Virus record (IMG/VR): IMGVR_UViG_3300029145_000010
Location: 1 to 38,911 of that record
Reading direction: 5' to 3' (one strand)
Length of the DNA: 38,911 nucleotides
From: a virus
Taxonomy: Duplodnaviria; Caudoviricetes
In this document: in pieces, positions 945-37,665 of the stretch
How positions within the stretch are numbered: position 1 is the stretch's first letter
Layout: each line of letters begins with the position of its first letter
The notes under the pieces: generated by a model
The model's input: the letters and a program-made list of their open reading frames with translations, nothing else
The model's database searches: none
Told to the model about the DNA's origin: nothing
Made by a program: the position numbers and the translations under genes

Positions 945-972
945 ACTATACAGAAACTAACTTATGACGAAC
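945..972 (-). other. dif-like site GTTCGTCATAA-GTTAGT-TTCTGTATAGT
   Basis: 11-6-11 architecture abutting the portal stop codon. Confidence 0.75.
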
Positions 973-2450
973 TAACTCGCCAGACGCACAGGCTCAGTCA
1001 CATTACCACCAAAACCCGGTATCCCCAGCAAACTCTGCTCACGCCCAGCCTGCGCCATCTTCTCCTCCATCAGCAAATCAATCTTCTTATCATCATACCC
1101 GAGATAAGGCAACTGACCCATCAAGCGCAAGAACTCACGCTCATAACCAGCATCACGCATAATCTGAGCCGCCATCATCACATCAGCATCATTCCGTATC
1201 TGAGCAGGCTTCCAGCGTGTACTAAAACCAATCACCTCACCAGTGAGACCCGCACCAAACGCCTGACGCAAGCGGATACTCATCCGCGCAATATCTTCCC
1301 ACACATTCCCGAATAACACCTGCGCACGATTTACCTTCTCAACCAGCATCGTCTGACGTTCCTTCAACGCCTCACCACTCTGCGCAGAAGACCCCATCGA
1401 GCTAGGGATAGGTGTACGGGTGATAACACTCAGACGGTCCTCAATATGCGTAATCGCCTCCAGAAACGGCACCAGCTCACCCTGTGGCACAATATCAACA
1501 TCCATCGCGCTCAACAGCGCCGCGTCATCAGTATCAGAACCAAAAATAACATAATCACCTGGAGCCGCATCACCCTCGGGGACAAAACCTTTTGCCTTAC
1601 GCAGAGGAAACGCAGTCAAGCGCGAACTCATCACCAGATCGACCAGCTCCCAATTCGCCGCATCCTGCAATGGAATACCATTATGCAACTCACTCTGTCC
1701 AAACGGATACCGCTTCTTAGGATTGTTGCTAAACATATGAATCGGCAACCCTAGCGGATCACCAGCCTCAGCACTCGTATCCGTCCACCACACCAGTCCA
1801 TTCTCATCCGTATCATCATCCGTATACGGCACCAGCTTACCGTCACCATCCGTCTCATACTTCTCAACAACACCCGGATGATAAACATTGACCCGCTTCT
1901 TAGTCGAACCCTCAGTATAAGCCTCATTCCAGATCTTAATCGCACAACTCAACTCACCTACAGCATTCAGGACTGGTATAACACCCGTCTCCGAATCACT
2001 ATCATAAGCATCCTCATGCACCCACCGCGTAACATCCTCATCAGCATCATACTCGGTCACAACAAACGTATACCCATCACGAATAGCCGCCTCATGCACC
2101 GATACCTGAAGCTCATCAAATCGGCTCTCACTACGGCACCGATCCAGATACACCTGATGCTCAGTAGGCTCATCCGACGATTGACCCTGCACCTCGACCT
2201 CAATCTCAGTCACACTCAAGCGGTCAGCCATCTTACCAATAATCATTGGCATATAATTAATATTGAATTGGTCAAGCAACGTCCGCTGAGCAATCCCCAG
2301 CTGGGTCTTTTGCCGCGTGGTCAATCCATCACGATGTTCACCATCATCGTACTGACGATACAAATGCACCATCTCACCACGCATCCGCACACCAGCCGAC
2401 CACGTCGCATGCACCTTATTACCCAATTTTTCCTGAATAGACTCAAGCAT
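972..2450 (-). CDS. Phage portal protein (SPP1 gp6-like)
   Basis: About 492 aa from the likely start MLESIQ; follows TerL; motifs INYMPMII, GQSEL, SGEALK. Confidence 0.85.
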   Translation of the reverse strand: MLESIQEKLGNKVHATWSAGVRMRGEMVHLYRQYDDGEHRDGLTTRQKTQLGIAQRTLLDQFNINYMPMIIGKMADRLSVTEIEVEVQGQSSDEPTEHQVYLDRCRSESRFDELQVSVHEAAIRDGYTFVVTEYDADEDVTRWVHEDAYDSDSETGVIPVLNAVGELSCAIKIWNEAYTEGSTKKRVNVYHPGVVEKYETDGDGKLVPYTDDDTDENGLVWWTDTSAEAGDPLGLPIHMFSNNPKKRYPFGQSELHNGIPLQDAANWELVDLVMSSRLTAFPLRKAKGFVPEGDAAPGDYVIFGSDTDDAALLSAMDVDIVPQGELVPFLEAITHIEDRLSVITRTPIPSSMGSSAQSGEALKERQTMLVEKVNRAQVLFGNVWEDIARMSIRLRQAFGAGLTGEVIGFSTRWKPAQIRNDADVMMAAQIMRDAGYEREFLRLMGQLPYLGYDDKKIDLLMEEKMAQAGREQSLLGIPGFGGNVTEPVRLAS

Positions 2451-3891
2451 ATTTCTTCCTCTTACCCGTCCGTTTTTGTGGCTTATCAGATAACATCCGC
2501 CACGCACCACTCAAACCATCAATCTGATCATCGTGCGAACCATTCGGGAATGAGCCAGCCTCATCTAAGAAATCACTATTCCAGAAACCAGTCAATAAAT
2601 GAATCATACCCAAACTAGCACGCGCCGCCGCAGGCAATAAGCGCGTCAGCTTATCACCTTCAACCTCATAACCTTTTATAGCATATTGCCTCAACTCAGG
2701 GTCTTTAACGACCTGTTGAATAGCTCGCGTCATATACCCCTTGTTTTCAAACCCCTGCCGCACACTCGTTCCATCCTTCAGCATCACCGCCTTCAGGAAT
2801 GACGGTAAATCAGCCAGTTCGACCTGACCACGCGCCACATCCAATATCACAGCCTCGCCATTCTTCAGCTCAGCCAGCTTCAACCCCACCGTAAAATCAG
2901 CAGTCGTTTTTTCACTCATCGCTAGATCCCAATAGCGAACAACCTGCTCAACATCACTATCCAGAACCGCAGGCAACTTCTTAAACCACGCTTTTTTGAG
3001 GATGCCACCCTCAGCAGGACTAGGAGATTGCTGATACTCCGCACTAAACGAATACGGTCCTAACTTCGCTTTCGTCTCATGTAAATTTGGGAGATCATAC
3101 CGCTCAGCCCACAATGCCTCACCTTCAGCACGTCCCAACAAATCATTTTTCTCAGCCAATGCAGGGAGCTTCAATTCAACCCAATCAACCCCACTCTGCA
3201 ACTCACGCCCAACAGGATCATCCTCATGCCAGCGTGTGTGCATCAAAATAACCGCACCATTCGGCTCTAAGCGTGTATACAAATCATCATTCCAGGCATC
3301 CCACACACCATCACGAATCGTAACACTCTCAGCATCCTTACGACCACGAATTAAATCATCACCAATCAAAATATGAGCACCCTTACCCGTCGCCGCACCC
3401 AGAACGCCCAGCGCAGTCATACCACCCTCACCATACGCATCAGCCGTATCCCAATCCATCACCGACTGACTATCAGGAGCAAGTCGCGTCGAGAATATCT
3501 CACCATAACGAGGACTATTAATAAAATTTCTTGCCGCTCGACTATGCTTATTCGCCAAACTCTGACCATAACACGCCAGCATAACCCGATGATGAGCATT
3601 GCGTCCCAGATACCACGCAGGAAACAAACGGCTCACCGTCAAACTTTTGCCGTGACGGGGTGGCATCGTAACGATTAACCGTCCAATACCCTCACGCCCA
3701 CCACTCTCAACAAACAAAGCCACCTGCTCCAGATGGCTATCTAACAATTCCAGATGTGGAGCGTGCATATAACGACTATACATATGACGCTTAAACGCAG
3801 TTAATGACTCCGCCTCCGAGTGAACAACCTCTGGCGCAGGCTCCCCAAATACCTCCTCAAACCATACCGCCGCTAACTCACGCTCATCCAA
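2443..3891 (-). CDS. terL: Terminase large subunit
   Basis: Walker A PPRHGKS, Walker B ILIGDD, TRWHEDD, nuclease motifs YWDLA and HDDQIDG. Confidence 0.95.
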   Translation of the reverse strand: MDERELAAVWFEEVFGEPAPEVVHSEAESLTAFKRHMYSRYMHAPHLELLDSHLEQVALFVESGGREGIGRLIVTMPPRHGKSLTVSRLFPAWYLGRNAHHRVMLACYGQSLANKHSRAARNFINSPRYGEIFSTRLAPDSQSVMDWDTADAYGEGGMTALGVLGAATGKGAHILIGDDLIRGRKDAESVTIRDGVWDAWNDDLYTRLEPNGAVILMHTRWHEDDPVGRELQSGVDWVELKLPALAEKNDLLGRAEGEALWAERYDLPNLHETKAKLGPYSFSAEYQQSPSPAEGGILKKAWFKKLPAVLDSDVEQVVRYWDLAMSEKTTADFTVGLKLAELKNGEAVILDVARGQVELADLPSFLKAVMLKDGTSVRQGFENKGYMTRAIQQVVKDPELRQYAIKGYEVEGDKLTRLLPAAARASLGMIHLLTGFWNSDFLDEAGSFPNGSHDDQIDGLSGAWRMLSDKPQKRTGKRKKYA

Positions 3892-3901
3892 AACAAAATT
3901 A

Positions 3902-3929
3902 CCTCTACAGAAAATAGATTATCCCGACC
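3902..3929 (-). other. dif-like site GGTCGGGATAA-TCTATT-TTCTGTAGAGG
   Basis: Both arms identical to the site at 34164; fills the gap between the upstream stop and terL; the right arm supplies the terL SD (GAGGT). Confidence 0.8.
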
Positions 3930-5285: not shown

Positions 5286-5408
5286 ACAAAAGCGCCCTCA
5301 CACACTCGTGAGAACGCCCTCGCTGTCATGACATATAACCGAAATATAGGAGCACCTGTGGGGGTAGGGGACACACGAACTATACACCCTCACAAAATGA
5401 CTAACGCA

Positions 5409-5873
5409 CTACGCCACTGCCCGATAGCCGAATGATCCCACCGTCGCAAATGCCAGCGATTGCAACGCAGTCGGCAAACGCCACGCTCCACGATACTCCA
5501 GCACCACACCCCTCGCCATCATATTCGGGATGTAATCCTCAGCCACCTCAAGGCGCACATCCAGCGCATCCGCAATACGGTCCGTCGTCAACCCCCACGG
5601 ATTCGCCCGTAACAAATCAACCAGACCGCCCTCAATAACCTGCTCACCAGCACGTAAGCAACGATACCCACGCCGCGCACCAGTCCCACCAATCCGGAAC
5701 AAACGTCCACGTTGCCACATACCAGCCATATACCGCCGCACCGTCTGCTCAGCCACCCCAAACGGCAAACCAATCTGCACCGTCTTCGGTAACACTCCAT
5801 ACTTCACATCTCGCTGACGACGCTTCACCACCTCAATAATATTATCTTCCCATGGATTCATAACCCACCTCAT
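5409..5873 (-). CDS. Tandem winged-HTH DNA-binding protein (possible late regulator)
   Basis: GVAEQTVRRYMAGMWQRGRL and LTTDRIADALDV...MMARGVV wHTH-like segments. Confidence 0.55.
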   Translation of the reverse strand: MRWVMNPWEDNIIEVVKRRQRDVKYGVLPKTVQIGLPFGVAEQTVRRYMAGMWQRGRLFRIGGTGARRGYRCLRAGEQVIEGGLVDLLRANPWGLTTDRIADALDVRLEVAEDYIPNMMARGVVLEYRGAWRLPTALQSLAFATVGSFGYRAVA

Positions 5874-6028
5874 CAGATCACCACTACCTCCTCTATTATA
5901 CCGTAATTAGCTTTAATGTTCTGCTTATCACAAAGTAAATTTGTAAACTATAACCAAGCATCACCCCAAGCATACCTCCACACACCCTCAACAATCTGGT
6001 GTCAATTATGTGCAAAATTATGAACAAC

Positions 6029-6057
6029 AAAAAAGCCCACTCATCTGAGCAGGCTTC
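6029..6057 (-). terminator. Intrinsic terminator ending the early small-gene cluster
   Basis: AAGCC...GGCTT stem with a T6 tract on the minus strand. Confidence 0.55.
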
Positions 6058-6063
6058 TTGTCG

Positions 6064-6306
6064 TCATTCATTCTCAAATAATATCTTATCGTGTGCTCCA
6101 TCCATAGAATAGCCTTTTGCTATCCAGTCTCGCATTTCTTGAGCAACGTCATCATAATCTCGACCAGTAACAGCCATTACACTAACCACATTCTTCTCGA
6201 AATCAGCCAGATTTTTTAAAGCACTTAGTGCAGTCGGACTCAAACCAAATACTAAATGCGCACCTATCTTAGCAAGCTGTTTTTTGAATTTCATCTTCCT
6301 CTCCAT
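6064..6306 (-). CDS. Hypothetical protein
   Basis: 80-aa ORF whose ATG lies inside a dif-like arm. Confidence 0.55.
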   Translation of the reverse strand: MERKMKFKKQLAKIGAHLVFGLSPTALSALKNLADFEKNVVSVMAVTGRDYDDVAQEMRDWIAKGYSMDGAHDKILFENE

Positions 6307-6325
6307 AAATGCTATTCCGTAGAGG
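6298..6325 (+). other. dif-like site CCTCTCCATAA-ATGCTA-TTCCGTAGAGG
   Basis: 11-6-11 site spanning a stop/start junction. Confidence 0.7.
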
Positions 6326-6647: not shown

Positions 6648-6656
6648 AACCTACTC

Positions 6657-6684
6657 CTTTCTGATAACCCATTTTATGTGCATG
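6657..6684 (+). other. dif-like site CTTTCTGATAA-CCCATT-TTATGTGCATG
   Basis: 11-6-11 intergenic site; same spacer as the site at 26492. Confidence 0.7.
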
Positions 6685-7844: not shown

Positions 7845-7872
7845 CTTTACGATAATCCTTTTTCTATACCCC
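7845..7872 (+). other. dif-like site CTTTACGATAA-TCCTTT-TTCTATACCCC
   Basis: 11-6-11 site occupying a 43-bp intergenic gap. Confidence 0.6.
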
Positions 7873-9108: not shown

Positions 9109-9136
9109 GGCTGACATAAACCACCTTCCCCTAATC
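9109..9136 (-). other. dif-like site GATTAGGGGAA-GGTGGT-TTATGTCAGCC
   Basis: Right arm differs by one base from that of the site at 20904; overlaps the upstream stop codon. Confidence 0.6.
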
Positions 9137-9342: not shown

Positions 9343-9370
9343 ACCCTATAGAATAGCCCTTATTTCGAGC
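9343..9370 (-). other. dif-like site GCTCGAAATAA-GGGCTA-TTCTATAGGGT
   Basis: 11-6-11 site; the TAA of the left arm is the stop codon of ORF 9360-9644. Confidence 0.6.
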
Positions 9371-12359: not shown

Positions 12360-13844
12360 TTAATTGCCGCGTATTTCCTTATCCATCACATCCCAAACAG
12401 ACAAAGCCTTATAAAATCGACCCGTCGCATCTTCCATCAACAAACCAACCGTATCTGCCAGCTTATTCAAATACTGAGCAAACTCATCTTGGCTCATCTC
12501 AGCAGACATACGGCGAACGTCACCGGTTGATAACTTCATCAAGTCCAACAACATCTCAGCCGCCGCCTCATCATTCATCACCCGCGCCATATGCACAAAC
12601 TGAGCAACCAGCGAAGAAATATTCACCTCTTTAACCAATTGCTCGTCATAAAGAGCATTCTGTAGACCTAACGAACCGTCGCCCTCAGCCTCAAATCGCT
12701 CAACATCAGGCACATAACCGCTATTACCCGATAGGGCAGGGGGCTTGGGGAGGGATTGCGCCTCATCTCGATATGCACTACTCGGCGGCAAACTGCCAGC
12801 AGGACGACCAAACGACTGATCACCCGGCAAAAATCGCGCCCGTCTTCCCTCAACCTCATCATCAACCTTAACGACCGTTAAGGTCTCCTCATCCTCATCA
12901 GCGTGTTTAACAACTGTTAAACTCTGCACATATTCTCGAATGTAATTCTCAGACCAATCATTCGTGTCAGCCTCGAGCCAGATCTTGTCATTCAGCTCCT
13001 CATCATCCGTCAAGCTCAACAGACGACGATACTGACTAATACGAGCCATACTTAACCCCACCGCGTGACTTATCTTGTCACCACTACCCATAGGGATCCG
13101 ATGTATATTCCCATTCGCAACCTGTGCATAAAATCGACGGTCACTCTCACCAGCCAGCACCAGATCGTTATAACTTGCGTAATCATGACCATCCATGTGA
13201 TCACGCTCCGCCATAATCAACAATGCAATCTGACGCGCCATCTGAATCGCATTCAAGCTATCACGCGCATTGTTCTCACTCGCCTGACGAAACACATCAA
13301 ACTCAACCTCACGCGCAGGGATTCGCTCCCATTGACCATCATCCAGATACATATTCAGCAGATGGTGCGCCAGTAAACGACGCTCACCCGTCTCAACCAT
13401 ATACCCGGCACCATCACGCACCACCGTAATCGGATTCGTCAAACCCTCATTGCGGATACTCGCCGCTAGGCTCATCAACTTGTTGAACCCCACCAGCACC
13501 GCACCCGCATCTTCAGGTAATTCCAACGACTTCATCCCCTTCAGTATCTGCGCCACATCAAACCGCTTACCATATTGATGCACCGCACCCTGATACCATG
13601 TCCCCAGCAAAGCAGGAATCGCCTCTGGAGACCCGTCCCACTCGCCGCACACCACCATCGGGATTGCTCTCCGCGGTTGCGCCCTATCCGGTCGAATACT
13701 CATAATCGGGATTGGCTTTGCACGCATCACCCCCGTATTCAGTCCAGGCTCCGACTTTCCGTAAATCTCATCTGCAACCTCATCTATATCCGCATGAGGC
13801 TGTGCAAAAATATCAATCTTGCCTTCATCTCTACGCTGAGACAT
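12360..13844 (-). CDS. parB: ParB-family partition protein (long, with insertions)
   Basis: PDRAQPRR, GLTNPITV, TGERR and ENNARDSL ParB/Srx motifs, followed by an HTH. Confidence 0.85.
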   Translation of the reverse strand: MSQRRDEGKIDIFAQPHADIDEVADEIYGKSEPGLNTGVMRAKPIPIMSIRPDRAQPRRAIPMVVCGEWDGSPEAIPALLGTWYQGAVHQYGKRFDVAQILKGMKSLELPEDAGAVLVGFNKLMSLAASIRNEGLTNPITVVRDGAGYMVETGERRLLAHHLLNMYLDDGQWERIPAREVEFDVFRQASENNARDSLNAIQMARQIALLIMAERDHMDGHDYASYNDLVLAGESDRRFYAQVANGNIHRIPMGSGDKISHAVGLSMARISQYRRLLSLTDDEELNDKIWLEADTNDWSENYIREYVQSLTVVKHADEDEETLTVVKVDDEVEGRRARFLPGDQSFGRPAGSLPPSSAYRDEAQSLPKPPALSGNSGYVPDVERFEAEGDGSLGLQNALYDEQLVKEVNISSLVAQFVHMARVMNDEAAAEMLLDLMKLSTGDVRRMSAEMSQDEFAQYLNKLADTVGLLMEDATGRFYKALSVWDVMDKEIRGN

Positions 13845-15322: not shown

Positions 15323-15505
15323 AAACCCTCCTATCTAATTCCACGCTTTCGATAAACAACTTTCTCAAACCCTTCCCACCACCGACGCTTTAGCCCATCT
15401 CGGCTTGAATCACTGCGTAATGAGTCCACACTGGCAAGACAGACTCGCCACAGTGAAAAGAACCTATATAATCGAGTTACCAAAGTGTGAATTCAGGAGT
15501 TTTAT

Positions 15506-16471
15506 ATGACCATTTGTCTCAAGGAGGCTGTGGATATTTGGCTATCACAGCAAATCGAAACCACTCGCAAATCCTACTACTATCCCATCAAGGCGCATCT
15601 GGAATATGTCGGCGAGCAATTGCCACTGGATGCCATCACGCCCGTTCACATCGCCACCTACTCTGAGCTAATCAAGCAACGGGATTACGCCACGAAGACA
15701 CTCTACAAACACATCTCCACCATCAAGACCTTCTGGAATTGGTGCATCAAGATGGATTTTGTAGAGAAGTCACCAGCTCGTATCCTCAAAAAGCCTAAAG
15801 TCCAGCGCAAGGTGAGTGATGAAAAAGCATTGCCTGCCAGAGACATTGGCATCTTGCTCGAATATCTCAAGCAACAAACGCTCAAGACCAATCCGGAAGA
15901 ACATGCCGTTGCAACTCGCAACTATGCACTCTTCACATTCCTTGCAGAAACAGGGGCTAGGGTAGGGGGTGCCGCATCACTCAAGATACGGGATCTCTGG
16001 CTCGATGACCTCTACGCTTATACCACCGAGAAGGGGTCGAAGCGTCTCAAGAAAGCCTTCACTGAAGAATGTGCCAATGCCTTCCGTGCCTGGTTGCTAT
16101 GTCGTCCGAATACGGATAACTCCAACGGGCATGTCTTTATATCCATGCGCGTCTACAAACCACTCACAGGCAATTACATGGCTCAAATCATGCGAAGAAC
16201 AGCGGAAGCAATAAAGCAAGATTGGGGATATGAATTGCAAAACAGAAACCCTCATGCCTTGCGTCATAGTCTCGCTCTGCGGATGTGGGCGGATAAAGTT
16301 GCACCCTCACGGATTGCAGTCGCCCTCGGTCACAGTCGCATCGAAACAACCATAGAACACTATGCGCCTAACGATTGGGAAGGGACAGCAGATGCTATTC
16401 GCAACTTGGCAATTAGCCCGCAACGTCCGCCAAAACAGGCTGAGAAAATTCTGAAAATCTCCGGTAATTAG
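15506..16471 (+). CDS. int: Tyrosine integrase
   Basis: TGARVG, K, HALRH, LGH and catalytic Y; ends about 30 bp before the tRNA-derived attP. Confidence 0.92.
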   Translation: MTICLKEAVDIWLSQQIETTRKSYYYPIKAHLEYVGEQLPLDAITPVHIATYSELIKQRDYATKTLYKHISTIKTFWNWCIKMDFVEKSPARILKKPKVQRKVSDEKALPARDIGILLEYLKQQTLKTNPEEHAVATRNYALFTFLAETGARVGGAASLKIRDLWLDDLYAYTTEKGSKRLKKAFTEECANAFRAWLLCRPNTDNSNGHVFISMRVYKPLTGNYMAQIMRRTAEAIKQDWGYELQNRNPHALRHSLALRMWADKVAPSRIAVALGHSRIETTIEHYAPNDWEGTADAIRNLAISPQRPPKQAEKILKISGN

Positions 16472-16503: not shown

Positions 16504-16541
16504 GTATAAGAGGTCGTGGGTTCAAATCCCGCTACCCCGAC
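16504..16541 (+). other. attP core: 3' half of a tRNA-Pro
   Basis: GTATAAG-AGGTC-GTGGGTTCAAATCCCGC-TACCCCGAC gives the 3' anticodon stem, variable loop, T-arm and Pro-type acceptor strand; the 5' half is absent. Confidence 0.85.
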
Positions 16542-16805: not shown

Positions 16806-17093
16806 TTAGACTGCTATCGCTCTCATTTCTTGCCCCTGCTCATCATCCTCAGAGACTTCAATCTCAACCAGTTTGAATAGATCACCAGGATCACAATCAA
16901 AATAAAGACATAGAGCGACAATTGTCTCATCACTATAGGTATTGTTTTTGTGATTGAGCATGTTACTGATGGTATTCCGGTGGAGTCCTGTATCCTCAGC
17001 AATATCCTTGATTAGAATTTGCTTGAGTTCTTTTTGCTCTTTGAGAGCGAGGAGTTTCTTCGTTTGATTAACGAGAATATGCTTCTTTGCCAT
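16806..17093 (-). CDS. Cro/CI-type HTH transcriptional regulator
   Basis: IKDIAEDTGLHRNTISNM...LCLYFDCDPGDLF; no peptidase domain. Confidence 0.85.
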   Translation of the reverse strand: MAKKHILVNQTKKLLALKEQKELKQILIKDIAEDTGLHRNTISNMLNHKNNTYSDETIVALCLYFDCDPGDLFKLVEIEVSEDDEQGQEMRAIAV

Positions 17094-17608: not shown

Positions 17609-17636
17609 GCTTAGCAGAATGTCACTTATCGCAACG
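17609..17636 (-). other. dif-like site CGTTGCGATAA-GTGACA-TTCTGCTAAGC
   Basis: 11-6-11 site directly upstream of recombinase A, abutting its SD. Confidence 0.7.
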
Positions 17637-17645
17637 GAGAATATC

Positions 17646-18878
17646 ATGAACACAGCAATCACCATCTATACTGAAGAACACAAGCAATCAGATTCCGCAA
17701 TCATTCAGCAGGACGTTGATACAACATGGCTCAATTATTGGAAACCAGGCGAAGCCTATCGGGACTTCTTCGCAGACCTCGCCAATATGCCCAGCTCCAA
17801 AACACCTGAACGCCATACCATGCGTGTCTATAGTGGCGGATTAGATTATTTCTTCAAATGCTACGGCACGAATACACTGCCAACCAAATCAGTTGTCAAT
17901 CGGTATATCACCCATCTGCGTCATGAAAAAGAATGGCGTGGCAATAAGGGCTTATCCGTCGCAACAATCGGCAGTAAGTATCTTGCGCCATTGAGGAAAT
18001 ACGTGGACTTTTTAGCATCACAACATATCCAGACCCGTGTCGATGGCAGTCCACTCACCAATCAGGACCGTAACTACATCATGGATGCCCGTGAGCAAAT
18101 GAGAGCCGCAATAAACGTAAAAACCCCCAAGGATGAGAACACGTCCAATCTTGCACCCCTGTATCAGCACGGCGAACGTCTTACTGTCGGGCAAATCCAG
18201 CAACTCTATGACACCTGTGATGTCAATACACTCGCAGGGCTTCGAGACTTCGCTATTCTCTATACAGGCTTCACCACTGGTATGCGGATTGCAGAGCTTC
18301 GCAGGATGACCCTCAGCAAAATCAAAAAGGCAGATGCCTGTTATCTCATCCACGTGCGCCGTAAGCGTGGCAATCGCGATCCAATACCACTGGATCATCA
18401 TGGCTATCAGATCATCACTGCATATGTGCACCGCTATAACAATACCCTGTCATTAGATGATCCGCGCCGTATCACTGTGGATGCACCCCTCTGGCAGGCA
18501 ATACAGCACAATGACACGGCATTCCCGCTCAACTATCAGGGACGAGCCATGCACACCACCGGTATGAGTGCATCAGCCATTCGTTACGTTCTCAAGAAAC
18601 GCGCACGGCAAGCGAATACCGGGAGCCTATCTGATTTTCCTGAATTCGCTCCGCACGACATGCGACGCTCGGCTGCCTCAATAGCCCATCAGAACGGCAT
18701 GCCCATTCCAGAAATTCAGGCGCTACTCGGTCACAAAAACGGTGGGGTAACTCTCAACTACATCGGTAAGCCACCCCAGCCAGAGAAATCACTCATCACA
18801 AATCTACCGGGTATCAACTGGAATATCCCAAATATCCCAAATACACCCCGTCAGACGGAATTGCAGGATGCAATCTAA
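17646..18878 (+). CDS. Tyrosine recombinase A (Xer-like, tandem paralogue)
   Basis: TGMRIAE, RKRG, HDMRR, LGH and Y all intact; likely start MNTAIT after GGAG. Confidence 0.9.
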   Translation: MNTAITIYTEEHKQSDSAIIQQDVDTTWLNYWKPGEAYRDFFADLANMPSSKTPERHTMRVYSGGLDYFFKCYGTNTLPTKSVVNRYITHLRHEKEWRGNKGLSVATIGSKYLAPLRKYVDFLASQHIQTRVDGSPLTNQDRNYIMDAREQMRAAINVKTPKDENTSNLAPLYQHGERLTVGQIQQLYDTCDVNTLAGLRDFAILYTGFTTGMRIAELRRMTLSKIKKADACYLIHVRRKRGNRDPIPLDHHGYQIITAYVHRYNNTLSLDDPRRITVDAPLWQAIQHNDTAFPLNYQGRAMHTTGMSASAIRYVLKKRARQANTGSLSDFPEFAPHDMRRSAASIAHQNGMPIPEIQALLGHKNGGVTLNYIGKPPQPEKSLITNLPGINWNIPNIPNTPRQTELQDAI

Positions 18879-18900: not shown

Positions 18901-18928
18901 ACTATACGGAATAACCATTATCAGGAGC
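18901..18928 (-). other. dif-like site GCTCCTGATAA-TGGTTA-TTCCGTATAGT
   Basis: 11-6-11 site between the two recombinases; contains the AGGAG SD of recombinase B. Confidence 0.75.
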
Positions 18929-18935: not shown

Positions 18936-20090
18936 ATGAACACCTTACAACTAATCCAACCAGACAATCAAATAGCAACCATCGACCAGCACCATCATGA
19001 CTTCAACTGGCTCAATTACTTCTCACCATCCAAAGCACTGGAGCAAGTCGCCGCGCATATTGTCACCCTGGGCAGTACCGGCACAACCAACAATACCAAA
19101 AAGATCTATAATTCAGGTCTCAAATACTTCTTTGAGTGGACCAACTGCACCAACCTCCAGCACCCATTCCCGGATGCAGAATACATCAGCACCTATATTG
19201 CACATTTATCCCATGACAAACCCACACGCTCAGGCAAAGGTATCTCGGCTCGCACCATCGCCAGCAAATACCTTGCACCTCTGCGTCTATACCTTCAGAA
19301 GCTCCGCATCCAGCGCATCGAGCAGGGTGATCCGCTCGAAATTATCAAATATAAGAATCATCTGGATGAAGCTCTGGCGATTCGCAATCCCAAACCAAAG
19401 AAGTCAACCAATCAATCCGCACTCTATGCACACGGCAACCGCCTCACCAAATCGCAGGTAGATGAGCTGTTCATGTCCTGCAACCTCAGCACCCTCAGAG
19501 GCAAGCGCAACTATGCACTGCTCTATACCGCATTCACTGTCGCGCTCAGAGTATCCGAACTCCGCAAACTCACCCTCGACGACATCAACCAGACTGAGAA
19601 GGGCTATGAATGTACAGTCACAGGTAAACGCAACAACTCAGACCCCGTCTTTATGGATGCCACCTGCGTCCAACTTATCCGTGATTGGATCACAGCTTAT
19701 AACCAACCATTCGATGATGATGATCCACGTCGCATCACCAACCAGACCCCCATCTGGCAACCGCTAAATCGTGGCAACAATCGCAAAAACAATCACAAAG
19801 CCAGTGAAGGAATCTCACGCGATGGTATCAGCAAACTCCTCGCCAGCATCAGCGAATCAGTCCTCGGATTTAGCATCTCACCCCATGACTGCCGCCGCTC
19901 GTATGCCGCAATGGCTCGTATCAATGGCATCGAGATGGACGCAATCCAGACACAACTGCGCCATGCCTCCATTGCCACCACTCAGATATATGTCGGTGCA
20001 TTGGTCGATAGGAGCAAATCCAGCCTATCAGCAAAAGTCACCTTTGCCACACCACCCAAACAACCCGCTCAACTTGAACTCGGAGCGTAA
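18936..20090 (+). CDS. Tyrosine recombinase B (Xer-like, tandem paralogue)
   Basis: VALRVSE, GKRN, HDCRR, LRH and Y; shares WLNY, SKYLAPLR, LYxHGxRLT and DDPRRIT with recombinase A. Confidence 0.9.
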   Translation: MNTLQLIQPDNQIATIDQHHHDFNWLNYFSPSKALEQVAAHIVTLGSTGTTNNTKKIYNSGLKYFFEWTNCTNLQHPFPDAEYISTYIAHLSHDKPTRSGKGISARTIASKYLAPLRLYLQKLRIQRIEQGDPLEIIKYKNHLDEALAIRNPKPKKSTNQSALYAHGNRLTKSQVDELFMSCNLSTLRGKRNYALLYTAFTVALRVSELRKLTLDDINQTEKGYECTVTGKRNNSDPVFMDATCVQLIRDWITAYNQPFDDDDPRRITNQTPIWQPLNRGNNRKNNHKASEGISRDGISKLLASISESVLGFSISPHDCRRSYAAMARINGIEMDAIQTQLRHASIATTQIYVGALVDRSKSSLSAKVTFATPPKQPAQLELGA

Positions 20091-20903: not shown

Positions 20904-20931
20904 CTTTGTGATAACTTACATTATGTAAGCC
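20904..20931 (+). other. dif-like site CTTTGTGATAA-CTTACA-TTATGTAAGCC
   Basis: Closest site to the canonical dif core ATAA-N6-TTATGT; left border of the foreign module. Confidence 0.75.
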
Positions 20932-23298: not shown

Positions 23299-23326
23299 GC
23301 TTCACATAAGGAACTTTCTAATAATG
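23299..23326 (-). other. dif-like site CATTATTAGAA-AGTTCC-TTATGTGAAGC
   Basis: Inverted relative to 20904; right border of the foreign module. Confidence 0.65.
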
Positions 23327-26491: not shown

Positions 26492-26519
26492 TCTCGTCAT
26501 AACCCATTTTCTGTAGAGC
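26492..26519 (+). other. dif-like site TCTCGTCATAA-CCCATT-TTCTGTAGAGC
   Basis: 11-6-11 site at the tail/lysis module boundary. Confidence 0.8.
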
Positions 26520-27889: not shown

Positions 27890-29461
27890 CTATACCCCTA
27901 ATGTAGTCGTTACACCCAACTCACTATAACCAACCTCGCCCAAAATCCAGAACGCATATTGATCAGCTTGCTCTAAGTACCACGTCACCCGATACCCGAA
28001 CCGCACACTAATATCATGCCGCTCACCAATAATGAAATACTCAGCATCATGTCCCGTCTGAGCATCACTAACCCGTATTCTATCCCCCATTTGTCGGGTC
28101 AACGCATCCTCAAACTTCGCATCACTATCCACCAAAAATTCAACCCATACAATCTCACCCCGTGGCTCAGAGAATTTACTCAGATTGTATTCAGCAATAC
28201 TCCGTGCAAGGTTCTCATTTGCAGTCAACTTACTATCAATCACCAGCTCACGTCGACCATACAGCGACATACTCAACGCATCCTGCACCTGCGCCTCAAA
28301 CTGGTTATATGCCGTCAACGCCTTCCCCTGAATCACCAGTTGATCATGTCCATAAATTTGACCCGGTGCCACCGTAAACTCAAACTTAGCCGACCGCGCA
28401 TCAAACTCCACCGTATAATCCGCAGGAGGCGAACCGGCAACCACGTTCAACGTATCCACAAACGGGTCAATCACACTAATCGTAGACCCCTCTGGAGACG
28501 TATACTGCGCTCTCAGCGAACGGCTCCGCCCCTCATCCCCCCCCTTCAGCTCAAACGGCTCATCACTCTGGTACACAATCGAATCACTAGCAGATACAGT
28601 CCGAGGATACGCAATCACCCGTACATCGTTATACAACCTCGAACCATACTCATAAGACGCATTGATAAAATAACCCTCATCATAGCTATCATCTAAATCA
28701 GTCAGTAATTGCAGATGATCACGCGCCCAGAAAATCGCCTTTCCTGCTCTATCAAAGAAAAATCGCCCCTGCTCAGCCTTAACCACATCCTCAATCGCTG
28801 TATATCCCCTAAACCCCGATTGCCAGTCATTCTTATTCACAAACTGATTACCATGAAAATCAGCATCCCACGTATCAGCAACATATGGAAACACTGAGTT
28901 ACCCGTATCAAAATCAGTACCCACACTCAAATCATTCAGATACGTATCCACACCCAGCGTACTAATCACACCCAATATCCAGCTATCACCCATCGCTGGC
29001 GGCAGATGTAACTGAGTCACAATCAGATCTAAAATCTCATCCGCACGCACATCCTCCAGCAATGGCAAATGCACCATCTGATCCTGCATATACTGCTTAG
29101 CACCCGTTGCAGTCAATCGGCATGTTGTACCATTTATTGGCGAGGGTAAAATCACATCCACATAACCAAAGTAAAGCACTGTCTGACTACCATCGTAATC
29201 AGCCACCACCTGCACCCGTCGCTGAGGCTTCAACCGGTCGTAATATGGCGAAGTAGATAACTCTACAGAAAACCGTTTATCATGATTATTCAACGTCAGC
29301 TCTAAGCGTGTCTCATCACCAACCAGCTGCTGAGGCTGGTGCATACCAATCGCCCAGTTACTCTCCTTGACGTAATTGGTAATCTCATCACCAAAATCAA
29401 ACACCCCATCATTATCAAAATCAATGTAATACCGTATTTGACCCGTAACCCTAGCCACCAT
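27890..29461 (-). CDS. Tail tip or hub protein
   Basis: 523 aa directly after the tape measure gene; LTLNNHDKRFS, EQGRFFFDRAG, GDRIRV. Confidence 0.7.
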   Translation of the reverse strand: MVARVTGQIRYYIDFDNDGVFDFGDEITNYVKESNWAIGMHQPQQLVGDETRLELTLNNHDKRFSVELSTSPYYDRLKPQRRVQVVADYDGSQTVLYFGYVDVILPSPINGTTCRLTATGAKQYMQDQMVHLPLLEDVRADEILDLIVTQLHLPPAMGDSWILGVISTLGVDTYLNDLSVGTDFDTGNSVFPYVADTWDADFHGNQFVNKNDWQSGFRGYTAIEDVVKAEQGRFFFDRAGKAIFWARDHLQLLTDLDDSYDEGYFINASYEYGSRLYNDVRVIAYPRTVSASDSIVYQSDEPFELKGGDEGRSRSLRAQYTSPEGSTISVIDPFVDTLNVVAGSPPADYTVEFDARSAKFEFTVAPGQIYGHDQLVIQGKALTAYNQFEAQVQDALSMSLYGRRELVIDSKLTANENLARSIAEYNLSKFSEPRGEIVWVEFLVDSDAKFEDALTRQMGDRIRVSDAQTGHDAEYFIIGERHDISVRFGYRVTWYLEQADQYAFWILGEVGYSELGVTTTLGV

Positions 29462-31517
29462 TTGCCCCGCTATCTCTCGCCGCAGTCTGCACAGTATTCA
29501 CGAGATCATACGCATTCTGACCATAACTATTCACCACATAGTTATCCCCACCACCACGCGAATTATTCTGAGAATTTGCAGTCGTCGCCGCAATCGCCAG
29601 ATCAACCGCACTCGCATCTATCTGACCCGGCATCAGCGTAATGTCCACCGTAGCCACCGCATCATAAGCCTCACCCTCAACCGTCCCCACCACATTCTCT
29701 TGTGCCTGGCTCGCAATCGACTCAATATCAAAATCAAGCTCAGCCGCCAATGGCAACAGTAAATTTTGAGCCTCCTCATCACCCTGTTCAAATGCCATCA
29801 GCAACGCCGATTCAAGCGCCGCACGTCCCTCAACCCCAAAATCCTCAGCATCAACCGCATCCAATTCAATCGCTTGAGCTAAAGAAAAATCTAGACCCCC
29901 CATCTGTATCATCTCATCACTCAAATCAATCGCACCAGCATTCAAATCTTCACGAATCGCATCTGTAATCGCATCCGCTATTTGCAAATCATATAATTGA
30001 GACCGCAACTCGGACGTATCAACCTGTAAATCAGGCGCAATATCCACCCGTCCACCGGTAGCGTCCAGCACCGCCTGCCTGAAGCCTAGCGCCCACTCAT
30101 CAAATTGTATCTGCGTCTCTAAATAGAATTGCTCTAGATCACGCCCTAGATTGTCAAAAATAATACTCAGCGCCATTGCCGCAGGACCCATCCCACTCAT
30201 AGCATCCTGCAAATCCCCAAAAACAATAATCCCAGCTTCTAATCGTTCAACCCACTCCAGCTCACCATCCTCACCACCAAGCCCGAACAACTCTCCGACA
30301 CTCTCCGCCATATCCGTGATGCCCAGCGCAATATCGTTAATGCCGGTAATGTCACCCTCGGTCAGTGCAATCAAACCATCCAGCACCCGATTGAAACCTG
30401 GACTAAGCTCATCACCTAGCGCAATCGCCAGATCAATCACATTATTCTTCAGTAGAGCCAACTTACCACCGGTCGTATCCGCTTTAGCCTCAGCCTCAGT
30501 CATCGCCGCATTATTCCCGGCAAATCCCTCCTCAGCTAAATCCAGCGCCTGCGTCACCGTGTCATAGCTACCAGCCAGAGACATAATCACACGTCTCTGC
30601 TCCGTACCCGTAATATTTAGCGCATCCAGCGTCGCCTGAGCATCACTCGACTCCATCTGCCCCAAGCCCTCAACGAACGCATCAAACGCCGCCGATGGGT
30701 CACTATTCGCCAGCTCTGCAAATTCATCTGCCGCCATACCAGCAGTTTCCGCCCACGTCGCGAGGTCGTCACCACCCTCACGGGTAGCTCTCTGCATATC
30801 CGCGATGCTCAGCGCAAAATTAGTAGACCCCAACTCAGCCGATAAACCGAGCGAAGCCATTGCCGCACCCCAGCCCAATATCTCATCAGCCTCAAAGCCC
30901 ACATTCGCCAGTGAACCCATTCGCTCACCGAAATTGATAATCATCGGCTCAGTCGTCGAGAGGTTATTACCGAGATGCACCACAGCATCCGCAATATTGT
31001 CTACATCCTCACCAATATCCAAACCGGTGAGATTCGCAAACTGTGCAAAGAACAACGCCGCCTGTTCTGTCGGCACACTCTCAGCCGCCACACCAAACGC
31101 CGCCACTGTCTGCGTAAACTCATCAAGGTCATCACCAGCCACACCGAGCTGACCACCCAGCGCCGCAATCGCCGCCAACTGGCTATGAGCATCCTCCAGA
31201 GACCCCGTCACCCCGGTAGTTGCCATCTCACGCAGTTGGATCTCTAAATCAGCCAGCTCCTCATCAGTCAGATCACCAACCGTCTTACGTACATCCGCAA
31301 AACTGTCTTCCCAGCTGATACTCGCCGCTAGTGCCGCACCACCAATTGCCGTAGTAGCAGACAACGCAAAACCAGCGAAACCCATAGCCAGCTGTCCTAA
31401 ACGCCGGTTCGTGTTTCGCGCAAAATTACCAACCTGATTGTCACCACTATCTAGACCGCGTCGTAAATCACTATCGTCCGCGGTTAAGACAGTTTCAAGC
31501 TCACTGACAGTCGCCAT
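29451..31517 (-). CDS. Tail tape measure protein (TP901-like)
   Basis: WEDSFADVRKTV, LGGQLGV, LGNNLSTTE; Ala-rich, 688 aa. Confidence 0.9.
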   Translation of the reverse strand: MATVSELETVLTADDSDLRRGLDSGDNQVGNFARNTNRRLGQLAMGFAGFALSATTAIGGAALAASISWEDSFADVRKTVGDLTDEELADLEIQLREMATTGVTGSLEDAHSQLAAIAALGGQLGVAGDDLDEFTQTVAAFGVAAESVPTEQAALFFAQFANLTGLDIGEDVDNIADAVVHLGNNLSTTEPMIINFGERMGSLANVGFEADEILGWGAAMASLGLSAELGSTNFALSIADMQRATREGGDDLATWAETAGMAADEFAELANSDPSAAFDAFVEGLGQMESSDAQATLDALNITGTEQRRVIMSLAGSYDTVTQALDLAEEGFAGNNAAMTEAEAKADTTGGKLALLKNNVIDLAIALGDELSPGFNRVLDGLIALTEGDITGINDIALGITDMAESVGELFGLGGEDGELEWVERLEAGIIVFGDLQDAMSGMGPAAMALSIIFDNLGRDLEQFYLETQIQFDEWALGFRQAVLDATGGRVDIAPDLQVDTSELRSQLYDLQIADAITDAIREDLNAGAIDLSDEMIQMGGLDFSLAQAIELDAVDAEDFGVEGRAALESALLMAFEQGDEEAQNLLLPLAAELDFDIESIASQAQENVVGTVEGEAYDAVATVDITLMPGQIDASAVDLAIAATTANSQNNSRGGGDNYVVNSYGQNAYDLVNTVQTAARDSGANGG

Positions 31518-31536
31518 AATACCTTTTCCGTAGAGC
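31509..31536 (+). other. dif-like site AGTCGCCATAA-TACCTT-TTCCGTAGAGC
   Basis: 11-6-11 site overlapping the tape measure ATG and SD. Confidence 0.75.
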
Positions 31537-34163: not shown

Positions 34164-34191
34164 CCTCTACAGAAAACCTCTTATCCCGACC
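34164..34191 (-). other. dif-like site GGTCGGGATAA-GAGGTT-TTCTGTAGAGG
   Basis: Arms identical to 3902-3929 with a different spacer; abuts a stop codon. Confidence 0.8.
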
Positions 34192-34600: not shown

Positions 34601-35053
34601 CTAATTAACAAAACCAGTAATCTTCAGCACCAGATCAGCCGTCGTAGCAAATGTCGGCGTGCTACCATTCAGCACCAGATACCCCCACAATTGACCCGTC
34701 CCGTGCAAAATTTTCAGTTCCTTCACCAGCGCATAGACATTACTATTTAGCGTGACATAATCACCACTCGCAATATCCACAACATCAACCAGCTTACCCA
34801 GATCCGCAGCAGTCATTGAAGCAGCAAACGCCGCATTATCAGCAATCTCAGTCGGTTGACCATCAAATAAATATAACTTGAATACAGCAGATTGCGCCGC
34901 ATCATCAGCCACCAATACATGCGTAATCAACCCCCCACCCTGAGCACCAGCCAGAGCAGACAAATCCAAACGCCCACCAACTACATCACCATCACTATAA
35001 GCCCCAGCAGTCACCACGATTTCAGCATCAAGAGCCACAATCTGATCAGTCAT
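34601..35053 (-). CDS. Putative virion structural protein
   Basis: 150-aa beta-rich protein (AYSDGDVVGG) in the head module. Confidence 0.55.
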   Translation of the reverse strand: MTDQIVALDAEIVVTAGAYSDGDVVGGRLDLSALAGAQGGGLITHVLVADDAAQSAVFKLYLFDGQPTEIADNAAFAASMTAADLGKLVDVVDIASGDYVTLNSNVYALVKELKILHGTGQLWGYLVLNGSTPTFATTADLVLKITGFVN

Positions 35054-35066: not shown

Positions 35067-35094
35067 TCTCTAAATAACTTATTTTCCCTAGATT
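35067..35094. other. Weaker dif-like site TCTCTAAATAA-CTTATT-TTCCCTAGATT
   Basis: Intergenic ATAA-N6-TTC; orientation ambiguous. Confidence 0.4.
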
Positions 35095-35601: not shown

Positions 35602-36513
35602 TTAACTAGCGTTAGAGCCAACGACAAAACGATAATCTTGCCAGCCCTTGCTATAACGTGTACGTCCAAAGAATGAGCGCATCAACGTATTCGAAACATC
35701 TTGGTCAGCACCAAACTGAACAGGAATGCGGTTGTACCACAACAACATCATCTGAGCAGCAGGACCATCAATCACGAACCATTTATTGCCACTAATATAA
35801 GGATGAATTAAGCCGATTAAATCAGCATCGACATTCGTCGCATTATTAGCAGATTCAGGTGTCAATTGTGACTCAGTCAACTCACGGATTTTTTTGCGAT
35901 TATTACGACCACCTAAAAGCACAGTCGCCATCGCACCCGTTTCATTGCCCAAATCATCGCCCAAACCCTCTAGCTGATTGATAGCAGTCTCTAAGCTTGC
36001 TGCACTTAAAGCAGGTGATCCACTCACCAGATTACTAACATTCGTGCTATCAGATTTCGAACGCGGATGAGAAGCGCTCACCAGAGGTTTGGCATCATAA
36101 CCAAGATAAGCCGCCCCAGTATTAAACGCATTTTCGAAAATGCTTGCCTCATCCTTAACAACCTTGCGAGCAAATGCTGTACCTAATTGCCCTGCTTGGT
36201 CGAAAATACCAGAGTATTGGTTATCCTCAAACATCGTCTGAGTAACCTTAAACCCCTTAGTCAAATGACCATGCGACCATTCAACTTCATAATCTGCTGC
36301 GAATTCACCATAATCAACCTGACCATTAAACGGGGTCGGGTCTCCCATCGAGCCAATACGCTGATGAGTCTCTTTAGACTTGTTACTACTACGCACACCA
36401 ATCACGCGATTAAGTAAAATCGGACTAAGCTGGCTGTATTTTTGCCAGAAGATTTCACTCAGCACGGGGTCGATGTCTACTAATGAACTGAACGCACCAC
36501 TATTCTGTACCAT
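35602..36513 (-). CDS. Major capsid protein (Mu gpT-like, HK97 fold)
   Basis: 303 aa; GFKVTQTMFEDNQY, GYDAKPLVSASHP, RYSKGWQDYR. Confidence 0.85.
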   Translation of the reverse strand: MVQNSGAFSSLVDIDPVLSEIFWQKYSQLSPILLNRVIGVRSSNKSKETHQRIGSMGDPTPFNGQVDYGEFAADYEVEWSHGHLTKGFKVTQTMFEDNQYSGIFDQAGQLGTAFARKVVKDEASIFENAFNTGAAYLGYDAKPLVSASHPRSKSDSTNVSNLVSGSPALSAASLETAINQLEGLGDDLGNETGAMATVLLGGRNNRKKIRELTESQLTPESANNATNVDADLIGLIHPYISGNKWFVIDGPAAQMMLLWYNRIPVQFGADQDVSNTLMRSFFGRTRYSKGWQDYRFVVGSNAS

Positions 36514-36526: not shown

Positions 36527-36922
36527 CTAAATCAGCGCATGATTGCCGTTGAAGACCACCAAAGTGTCTTCATCAGCTGCACTATCAGCCCAAACAATAA
36601 AATCGGCGTTACTACTCGCCGCTAAACCTAAACCACCAGTCGCAAGGTCGAGGGTTGCACCAGCAACACGCGCATTATTATCCTCAACTGCATAAATCGC
36701 ACCCGGATTAACGATACATTCAACCGTCAACCCATCTGCCGTATTATCCACATCTTGTAAAGCAATACCGAGGAAGGCACTATCATTTGTTGCACCAGCA
36801 TCGACCTCTCCACTCTCAAGATTCAGCATCTCACCACGCGATAATACAACTGTATCCGCAATGGTTTTTGTTTGGATAATCGGCTCACTACCATCACTTG
36901 AACCTGACCATCTAAAAGCCAT
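36527..36922 (-). CDS. Capsid cement/decoration protein
   Basis: 131 aa between the scaffold and capsid genes; FLGIAL motif. Confidence 0.6.
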   Translation of the reverse strand: MAFRWSGSSDGSEPIIQTKTIADTVVLSRGEMLNLESGEVDAGATNDSAFLGIALQDVDNTADGLTVECIVNPGAIYAVEDNNARVAGATLDLATGGLGLAASSNADFIVWADSAADEDTLVVFNGNHALI

Positions 36923-36934
36923 ACATCACCTCAA

Positions 36935-37630
36935 CTATGTTTGACCAGTACGCCGCTTAGCAATATCCTCAGCACTAATATCATAGCCCTGAGACTTCGC
37001 AATCTCAGCCGCCGCACGGTCTTCTTCTGTCACCTTAGTTTGTAACGAGAAGTCCTCGACACCACGTCCACCATCCAACGAACCCGGCTTAGGTTTACTC
37101 AGCACACCGACCGCATCATTCAGCCAAGCCTGTAAAGCAGGTGGACTCATGTGCTCGGTCAATTTACTCACCAAAGCCTTCTGTTCAGCAGGTAACGCAT
37201 CAATACGAGCTTTATTCTGCTCACGCATTTCCTCAACCAGCTTATCGTAAGCCTCAGCTTTAGGATTTAACTCAGCCAATCTCGCCTGCTCCTCTTTTAA
37301 AAGAGCCTCGAAATTACCTTCTTCCTTTAACCGCTTCTCACGAAATTCGCGCAACTGTGCCAGCTCCTGCAAATCAGTCTTTAGTTTCTCTCTCTCAGCA
37401 TCGCGCTCAGCGAGACGTTTCTCTAAAGCCGTTGCATAAGCCTCTGGGTCATCGTACCGACCGCCACTCGAACCCTCATTCCCTGAGTTCCCGGTCTTAC
37501 CATCAGTACCATTACCGCCAGCATTACCACTCGCACCATTACCCTGATCATCTGCTTGATTAAACAAAAACCCCGTATATCGTCTGTGAATCATCCCGAT
37601 TCCACTCCTCATCATTCCGACGAGCGACAT
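36935..37630 (-). CDS. Capsid scaffolding protein
   Basis: G/N-rich linker followed by a coiled coil (EEGNFEAL); synteny. Confidence 0.7.
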   Translation of the reverse strand: MSLVGMMRSGIGMIHRRYTGFLFNQADDQGNGASGNAGGNGTDGKTGNSGNEGSSGGRYDDPEAYATALEKRLAERDAEREKLKTDLQELAQLREFREKRLKEEGNFEALLKEEQARLAELNPKAEAYDKLVEEMREQNKARIDALPAEQKALVSKLTEHMSPPALQAWLNDAVGVLSKPKPGSLDGGRGVEDFSLQTKVTEEDRAAAEIAKSQGYDISAEDIAKRRTGQT

Positions 37631-37637
37631 CCCGCCA

Positions 37638-37665
37638 CCTCGTCATAAACCTCATTCTGTATAGT
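37638..37665 (+). other. dif-like site CCTCGTCATAA-ACCTCA-TTCTGTATAGT
   Basis: Arms nearly identical to 945-972, inverted; overlaps the scaffold SD. Confidence 0.8.

Follow-up and report, generated by a model that had tools for sequence, protein, structure and literature searches.

Here, we describe a genome-wide lattice of recombination-site-like sequences in 38,911 nucleotides of DNA from a tailed virus (Duplodnaviria; Caudoviricetes; IMG/VR virus record IMGVR_UViG_3300029145_000010), the whole of which we call the window. The circular unit measures 38,702 bp: a 179-bp direct repeat (14..192, + strand; partner copy at 38716-38894) is assembly overlap, and one contig of the source run bridges the circular join. 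An inverted 16-base tag caps both ends of the window (1-16 and 38896-38911); the same 16-base word also borders adapter-like letters in source-run contigs, and we take it to be a random-amplification primer and, thus, not phage DNA. The window encodes a terminase, an SPP1-type portal, a capsid protein, a tape measure, ParA, a ParB-like protein, a repressor and three tyrosine recombinases, with nearly all genes on one strand. Between and, in two places, within these genes lie 19 sites of 28 bp, each consisting of an 11-bp left arm, a 6-bp spacer and an 11-bp right arm (11-6-11). The lattice they form is real and family-wide, and its primary rule is spacing, not modules. We suggest, with a probability of about 0.45, that a Cre-like recombinase of the phage uses the sites to circularise injected terminally redundant DNA in the style of P1 but genome-wide. 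The sites are as follows:

945..972, - strand: site, spacer GTTAGT, after the portal stop codon
3902..3929, - strand: site, spacer TCTATT, before the terL start
6298..6325, + strand: site, spacer ATGCTA; the start codon of open reading frame (ORF) 6064-6306 lies within the left arm
6657..6684, + strand: site, spacer CCCATT; fits the model from relatives of recombinase A better than that of G001
7845..7872, + strand: site, spacer TCCTTT
9109..9136, + strand (corrected): site, spacer ACCACC; a variant contig of run X4 departs just past spacer plus TTCC
9343..9370, - strand: site, spacer GGGCTA
12641..12668, + strand: site inside parB (codons 393-402), spacer AGAGCA
15345..15372, + strand: site, spacer ACAACT; 20.7 bits under the family model excluding this genome
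17609..17636, - strand: site at the start of recombinase A, spacer GTGACA
18901..18928, - strand: site 8 bp before recombinase B, spacer TGGTTA
20904..20931, + strand: site below the beta-helix tail gene, spacer CTTACA
23299..23326, + strand (corrected): site, spacer GGAACT
26492..26519, + strand: site, spacer CCCATT, shared with 6657 as the sole match among 171 pairs
29260..29287, - strand: site inside tail gene 27890-29461 (codons 59-68), spacer ACGGTT
31509..31536, + strand: site, spacer TACCTT; the tape-measure start codon lies within the left arm
34164..34191, - strand: site, spacer GAGGTT; the homologous G001 junction has the other strand and another spacer
35067..35094, + strand: site, spacer CTTATT
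37638..37665, + strand: site, spacer ACCTCA

Several lines of evidence support that these sites, proposed in an earlier note as a genome-wide set of 28-bp 11-6-11 sequences, are real. First, all 17 coordinates of that note read 11-6-11, with ..AA and TT.. flanking the spacer. Second, a position weight matrix (PWM) of the noted sites finds 19 positions at ≥14 bits, far above the mean of 0.34 (maximum 3) in 100 dinucleotide shuffles. Third, the unweighted word ATAA-N(n)-TT[CA][TC] occurs 28 times at n=6 compared to 1-10 times at n=3, 4, 5, 7, 8 and 9. Fourth, a PWM trained on the relative G001 alone recovers nine window sites at ≥13 bits against 0.4 in shuffles. Site refinement returned 0 sites in 5/5 shuffles of each of 12 sequences. 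Thus, the shuffle controls and the G001-trained model rule out the sites as a chance or coding artefact.

A family model that excludes this genome, and for which ~0.8 chance matches are expected at ≥12 bits, gives the final set of 19 sites. Most of the coordinates given earlier stand, including 35067, which had been called weaker and is a real site; 9666 is unsupported, and 9109 and 23299 had been placed on the wrong strand. On the strand noted at first, 9109, 9666 and 23299 fail in leave-one-out scoring (1.6, 5.2 and 6.8 bits), whereas 9109 and 23299 pass on the + strand under the family model (15.7 and 16.4 bits); the "TTATGT arm" described for these two sites is, therefore, the reverse complement of the left arm. 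Three sites are additions: 15345, and the strong sites 12641 and 29260, which had been overlooked because they lie inside genes. Seventeen of the 19 sites are intergenic, compared to 78% coding positions (binomial p 7e-10). The statement that all sites lie at gene boundaries is, thus, nearly true in the window but false as a family rule: G001 carries sites at the same two in-gene places (parB and the tail gene), and a site lies within the parB homologue in 11/16 elements. In the window as in G001, the in-parB site marks the break that separates two aligned blocks. The proposed Xer/dif likeness survives as a tyrosine-recombinase 11-6-11 geometry but not in the inner motifs. While the left motif is ATAA in 19/19 window sites, the right one is TTAT in 2/19 and TTCT or TTCC in the rest; the Xer inner motif is ATAA-centre-TTAT (PMC11705084).

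The feature that organises the sites, and that had been overlooked, is their near-even spacing with a limit on gap length, a site recurring every 2-4 kb around the genomes of this phage and its relatives. Gaps are more even than random in 13/17 elements (P≤0.01; not significant in G006, L021, G412 and G415) and, where tested, also than under random picking among gene junctions. The 14 gaps of G001 measure 1850-3667 bp (coefficient of variation 0.21; P<5e-5, also against random gene junctions). Under one uniform rule for weak sites, and with several records classed as linear handled as circles, the largest gap is 3298 bp in the window and 3636-4586 bp in five others of nine near-complete genomes. 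A 3.5-kb repeat begun at any position of the window holds a site in 100% of cases, compared to 83% for random sites (0/5000 trials). It is because spacing is kept that sites enter coding sequence, as in the parB homologues.

By contrast with their positions, spacer and strand drift. Orthologous positions retain a site; however, spacers agree at a mean of 2.3/6 at 35-60% protein identity (null 1.85), and strand differs in 58/223 orthologous site pairs. Among same-strand pairs at ≥85% protein identity, spacers are identical in 8/10. Within genomes, identical spacers make up 2/1157 pairs, which equals chance, and in the window 1/171 (6657/26492), with none at 5/6. Neighbouring sites have the same orientation in 68 cases and the opposite in 92 over 14 elements (P 0.07 versus random), i.e., there is no strict alternation. 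Because nearly all genes are on one strand, site strand is unrelated to transcription, and we rejected the sites as promoters or stoperator-like elements on this ground.

The lattice extends to other elements that carry the same family of tyrosine recombinases. Recombinase searches yielded 20 other elements long enough for analysis, and 19/20 carry 4-19 sites of the form ..ATAA-N6-TTCY.., with an outer-arm consensus that differs per element; two pairs among the 19 are close kin. Two of the recombinase-bearing elements sit in Chloroflexota genomes. Left out of this count as short or near-duplicate were L014-L017, L020, L022, L023 and L025 (L022 and L023, ~2.5 kb each, have no site); 52/54 loci were dropped as distant integrases (23-30% identity) or short matches, L024 and L100 are duplicates of G004, and G002 is a duplicate of the G005 prophage. 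G416, a 27-kb terminase relative without the recombinase, has no sites. In G005, 14 sites lie in the 43-kb prophage and none in 33 kb of flank; over the whole genome, 17/89 pattern matches and 10/13 strict matches fall within the prophage. The recombinase family numbers 119 clusters of proteins (50%-identity representatives, E≤1e-30) and is present in 1/401 class-level genomes. A search with recombinase A found no further close relatives, and a search of viral contigs with the exact site pattern gave 0 matches. ParA is encoded in 18/22 elements and ParB in 16/22. The three tyrosine recombinases of the window are:

15506..16471, + strand: third tyrosine recombinase (P0001, 321 aa), likely integrase
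17619..18878, + strand: recombinase A (P0002, 419 aa), same family as B (34% identity), catalytic set intact
18936..20090, + strand: recombinase B (P0003, 384 aa), R-K-H-R-H-Y intact, 62% identical to the single copy of G001

Recombinase B likely acts on the main site class. The R-K-H-R-H-Y set is complete in 21/22 recombinase rows, the 22nd being a truncated call. The best match of the predicted model of recombinase B (mean confidence, pLDDT, 86.7) is Cre (TM-score 0.58 by query, 0.68 by target), followed by XerA and XerH; identity to Cre is 13-16% in structural alignments. Family cut-offs for Xer proteins are not reached (62-103 bits versus 330-335 for XerC/XerD, with the XerS and XerA models far under), nor is that of the integron integrase TIGR02249 (20-28 bits versus 265). 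A site lies ≤800 bp upstream of 18/22 recombinase ORFs, most within 60 bp and mostly in one orientation. Importantly, the distance between site profiles tracks that between recombinases (Mantel rho 0.52-0.57, P 0.006-0.0005, 13-18 elements), in line with the link to a phage recombinase proposed earlier. The profile follows neither ParA nor the repressor (repressor rho -0.14), nor ParB (rho -0.01 to 0.02, P ~0.45-0.5, whole-protein distance); this lack of correlation with ParB led us to reject the sites as parS.

The window sites come in two flavours: 6657, 15345, 17609 and 20904 score 17-23 bits under the model from recombinase A relatives and -9 to 10 under that of G001, and 6298, 9343, 29260, 31509 and 35067 show the reverse preference. 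Recombinases A and B stand in tandem (17619-20090) and belong to one family but differ in nearest relatives, those of A being in G005 (62%) and G407 (53%); G001 has B only, and G410 also has two copies. From these comparisons, the window appears to be a hybrid, having acquired A together with some of A's sites.

The host enzymes XerC/XerD, the other candidates put forward earlier, found little support. XerD was found over cut-off in 0/5 host-lineage genomes, which may be incomplete (best 154 versus 329.6 bits; 4/14 controls pass), and 41 family genomes share no dif-like word (10 with a match, 19 hits versus 19 in the control). Dehalococcoides alone is listed in the excerpt of PMC3025954 that bears on a host dif. 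G443 has five near-identical dif-like matches on five contigs, perhaps the ends of a repeated element.

Integration appears to be the task of the third recombinase, which the earlier note had missed. Beside it lies a candidate attP core:

16508..16541, + strand: candidate attP core, 3' half of a tRNA; contigs of runs X3 and X4 match only here

One X4 contig runs from this core into tRNA-like sequence (by eye tRNA-Pro). The G005 prophage is bounded by a 36-bp repeat from the 3' end of tRNA-His, beside a P0001 orthologue; thus, integration does not use the lattice sites, which we rejected as att sites accordingly. Near the attP region, L014 has a 177-bp insertion (3215-3391) relative to L015/L016, after a short hairpin-rich stretch and not at a site. 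We infer that the host of the window belongs to the Chloroflexota: the two close genome matches of the recombinase family are Anaerolineaceae and Chloroflexota, and recombinase A is 62% identical to a prophage copy in an Anaerolineaceae genome. Because the candidate attP core has a match (≤1 mismatch) in 0/31 family genomes, the assignment stays at that strength. Other genes of the window are:

972-2510, - strand: SPP1-type portal
2443-3891, - strand: terminase large subunit; psiM2_ORF9 model over cut-off, Terminase_6N
12360-13844, - strand: parB-like gene
13831-14643, - strand: parA
16806..17093, - strand: Cro/CI-type repressor, divergent from the recombinase operon

The ParB-like proteins of the family are long (484-801 aa), and their C-terminal part is without known match. 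A 228-aa protein (9693-10379) has weak PolX/nucleotidyltransferase matches and is common to 9/22 elements. Compared to G001, the terminase is 82% identical, the portal 64% and the major capsid protein (35602-36513) 26%, the latter suggesting a likely capsid swap without a site at its ends. The gene at 34601-35053 (150 aa) lies among head genes in the window; its G001 homologue lies inside a 2.1-kb insert between sites 29837(+) and 31956(-), the position of which in the window is the single site 37638. At 21022-25017, the window encodes a beta-helix tail protein, a protein from a 264-293-aa gene and an SH3-bearing protein that is 61% identical to the product of a G005 prophage gene; the region has no match in G001, where another gene is found, and sites 20904 and 23299 flank its first two genes.

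Altogether, these observations lead us to the following model for circularisation. Recombinases B and A would bind both arms and, in the manner of Cre and Xer, recombine sites only if their spacers match. Processive headful packaging would give permuted ends, with successive headfuls repeating the next few-kb tile of the genome, and the repeated ends of any virion would carry one and the same site twice, spacer included. Selection would hold the gap between sites to roughly one terminal-repeat length, even where this puts sites into coding sequence. Strand and spacer would be free to vary because a site only meets its own copy, and unlike spacers would prevent self-deletion or self-inversion of the genome. 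With its gene opposite the repressor and a site over its own start, the recombinase would be produced as soon as the DNA is injected and would afterwards shut off its own gene. As a by-product, the same chemistry would resolve dimers and cross co-infecting relatives at allelic sites, giving more module swaps there.

Two features of the lattice argue for this model. First, because spacers are unique, each site meets only its own copy. Second, the gap-length limit points to a need that can arise anywhere on the map, and headful packaging supplies one. Twelve of 12 terminases fall in Terminase_3/6 or PHROG 2/38 and none in a cos-type family, with psiM2 and Aaphi23 near in the comparisons; psiM2 and Aaphi23 are headful packagers. 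We found no ERF/RecT/Sak-type annealing protein among the 57 window proteins or 152 picked proteins of relatives (~130-520 aa). Published systems provide precedents for the single steps. SPP1 processively packs ~45.9 kb from a 44.0-kb genome and depends on the repeat for recircularisation (PMC6316719), P22 and Sf6 circularise via Erf (PMC5630979), and P1 cyclises by RecA or Cre-lox (PMC3973344). Moreover, pdif sites with matching spacers recombine, for the most part from one molecule to another (PMC13141974, PMC11705084).

Other observations weigh against the circularisation model. G006 is not evenly spaced at all (P 0.15), and in three of the nine near-complete genomes (G005, G407 and G006) the largest gaps are 6.1-9.0 kb, the three values, in order of size, being 6071, 7019 and 8970 bp. 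Sites clustered 0.1-0.9 kb apart in accessory regions are more than circularisation needs, and the predicted widening of gaps with distance from the assumed pac was not found (rho 0.01, P 0.9). The terminase family suggests headful packaging but is only a guide to it, and host RecA alone could circularise the DNA without any site. The integrase tracks the site profile comparably to the recombinase (rho 0.41-0.57; partial 0.26 versus 0.43), in a Mantel test that is not tree-aware and in which kinship and G+C are confounded. G414 is a counter-example, with sites that resemble those of the window and a recombinase that does not, and several core sites score alike under A- and B-type models. Finally, G408 has the recombinase and a window-like terminase but four weak same-strand local sites and no lattice, and an annealing protein that might account for the missing lattice was not found. 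In G408, the family recombinase lies among accessory genes (5293-9262, L106), with the weak sites between single small genes and no integrase homologue; elsewhere in this genome (L108 13015-15042), one 675-aa ORF, truncated where the contig stops, has matches to portal, 2'-5' RNA ligase-like and Mu F domains.

What the model treats as a by-product could instead be the main function. In such a pseudo-segmented genome, the lattice would mainly serve allelic crossover between co-infecting or sister genomes, for 2-3-kb reassortment or for repair from two damaged genomes. The sites appear to serve allelic crossover at times; however, they are not the sole breakpoints. In L015/L016, a repressor region of 55% identity has one end within a site, of which left arm and spacer are the same but the outer right arm differs, and the other end of the swap is a terminator. 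In an independent run, an X4 contig exits the window just past spacer plus TTCC of site 9109, a departure with 18 letters on its short side, and re-enters at 9380, so that gene 9131-9328 is missing. Of 30 ends of long identical stretches in close pairs, three fall at a distance of 0-16 bp from the edge of a site (0.23 expected, P 0.002), a threshold chosen afterwards and with all three matches from one pair; the other 27/30 lie away from sites. Synteny breaks at 71/82 site junctions compared to 221/349 others (p 4e-4 when stratified by gap length; gene calls are crude and rows not independent), and in the window versus G001 alone at 8/10 compared to 15/31, with at least one false break (31509) and too few junctions to separate the two. 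In G409/G411 and L019/L020, gene replacements mostly end at places other than sites, and the L019/L020 mosaic blocks are near sites but not bounded by them. Thus, the site-specific module swapping that the earlier note proposed finds support as exchange between genomes in some cases (L015/L016, X4): two breakpoints lie at spacers and breaks are enriched at sites, while most breakpoints lie elsewhere. The spacers identical in 8/10 close pairs also fit a pseudo-segmented genome. However, it needs co-infection, which is a weak force for keeping sites in essential genes, and we consider it unlikely as the main function.

A single site suffices for dimer resolution in P1 and in chromosomes. Nevertheless, the lattice could resolve dimers or unlink replicating circles of a plasmid-like state, with many sites acting locally behind the fork, and the frequent ParA and ParB genes (18/22 and 16/22) would suit such a state. 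Unique spacers fit recombination between sisters only, and Cre is reported to unlink P1 sisters that have just been replicated (PMC7192630). We hold this to be quite unlikely, because one site would do and the gap-length limit is unexplained. Moreover, phages of the family also integrate, and no FtsK gene was found over cut-off in 10 phage records.

The sites could also form a binding lattice without strand exchange, placed every 2-3 kb as a roadblock, an unloader of SMC (structural maintenance of chromosomes) complexes, a centromere-like anchor, for which KorB and N15 are the model, or a repressor target. Many sites overlap ribosome-binding sites or start codons, and position is retained while spacer and strand drift. 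As cited in PMC11840125, XerD unloads SMC at dif-like XDS sites without recombining. The invariant catalytic residues, the two breakpoints right at spacers, a profile that follows neither ParB (rho ~0) nor the repressor (-0.14) and the lack of relation between strand and transcription make this idea improbable.

The earlier note had favoured a cassette system, in which genes or modules lying between sites are cut out, inverted or integrated, like the dif modules of Acinetobacter. Such a system may hold locally: 17/19 window sites are intergenic, single small genes sit between sites at 6298-9370, two adjacent same-strand sites of G410 share one spacer, and the four weak G408 sites lie between small genes beside the recombinase. 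The window at 6064-9644 is an A+T-rich run of small genes that has no family matches and is absent from G001; with five sites within 3.1 kb, it is a possible local cassette region. As a general account, however, cassettes are distinctly improbable. Because spacers within a genome almost never match (1/171), internal excision or inversion is unlikely, and contigs of four runs, those of the two source runs among them, contain no joints at spacers, although contigs drop rare forms. The mixed orientation (68 same, 92 opposite) and the sites in parB, tail and other core genes argue against a pdif-like module design, and the order of morphogenesis genes is conserved relative to G001, with no inversion. 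Action of the host's XerC/XerD on the sites, with or without the phage enzyme as partner, is very improbable: the left arm and inner motif resemble pdif XerC arms (PMC13141974), and G414 is like the window in site profile and low G+C although the two lack a close recombinase in common, whereas the five host-lineage genomes, incomplete as they may be, have no XerD over cut-off, the 41 family genomes share no dif word, strict matches in G005 are mostly in the prophage (10/13), and right arms vary from phage to phage.

Compared to known systems, the lattice works like Cre/loxP with Xer-like geometry and pdif-like spacer keys, and it fails defining features of each. As in Cre/loxP of P1, a simple tyrosine recombinase with a full catalytic set and a Cre-like predicted two-domain fold is encoded by a phage, a temperate element with ParA/ParB. 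P1 carries one lox site, unlike the 10-21 sites per genome here, nearly each with its own spacer, and the enzyme differs from Cre by sequence (13-16% identity). Also, loxP is a 13-8-13 perfect inverted repeat (PMC7192630), while the sites here are 28-bp 11-6-11 with imperfect arms. As in Acinetobacter Rep_3/OrfX plasmids, there are many 11-6-11 sites, and pdif recombines between molecules at matching or near-matching spacers (PMC13141974, PMC11705084). In pdif, however, host enzymes act on a near-constant XerD arm, and strictly alternating sites bound accessory modules; here, the right arm is phage-specific, alternation is lacking, spacing stays even across core genes and the phage itself encodes the enzyme. 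Single-recombinase Xer systems (XerS/difSL, XerH/difH and archaeal XerA) share the 6-bp spacer, archaeal dif being 11-6-11 (PMC11840125), and XerA and XerH are among the fold matches. They differ in having one site per replicon, at the terminus, and their family cut-offs are not reached here. Many dispersed sites for one protein, some in genes, are also seen in XerD/XDS. KorB operators of IncP plasmids, N15 dispersed centromeres and L5 stoperators are likewise dispersed binding sites, some in genes. None of these four systems needs unique spacers or strand exchange, and, unlike dispersed parS/KorB operators, site sequence here does not follow the cognate ParB. Integron cassette arrays differ in their integrase (TIGR02249, 20-28 bits versus 265) and in their same-strand attC sites, strands here being mixed, and an integrase att system differs in that the G005 prophage ends are not in lattice sites. 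The phages P22, Sf6 and SPP1 face the same problem of permuted terminally redundant DNA and solve it by Erf/Sak-type homologous recombination (PMC5630979, PMC6316719), for which no annealing gene was found here.

In searches of the open-access literature, we found no phage with an evenly spaced lattice of this kind. With slightly less assurance than for circularisation itself, we suggest that the whole lineage may have swapped homologous recombination for an addressed lattice, in which a single Cre-like enzyme, together with 10-21 sites that each have a key of their own and a spacing matched to the terminal redundancy, would let every permuted virion circularise itself, while 2-3-kb segments would be exchanged only with alleles. 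Headful phages are known to circularise from their ends either through homologous recombination or by means of one lox site, which is of use to only part of the virions; evenly spaced, uniquely keyed sites would be a third answer. If this is true, genome layout would be tied to capsid geometry in a testable manner (largest gap ≤ terminal repeat), and packaging redundancy could be read from site spacing. The boundaries of modules in phage mosaics would have an enzyme-driven basis, since allelic sites can be where swaps begin. The lattice would also be a natural library of mutually exclusive lox-like sites, and each member of the 119-cluster family would bring 10-20 natural target variants, making the family a source of recombinase-site pairs and of specificity rules.

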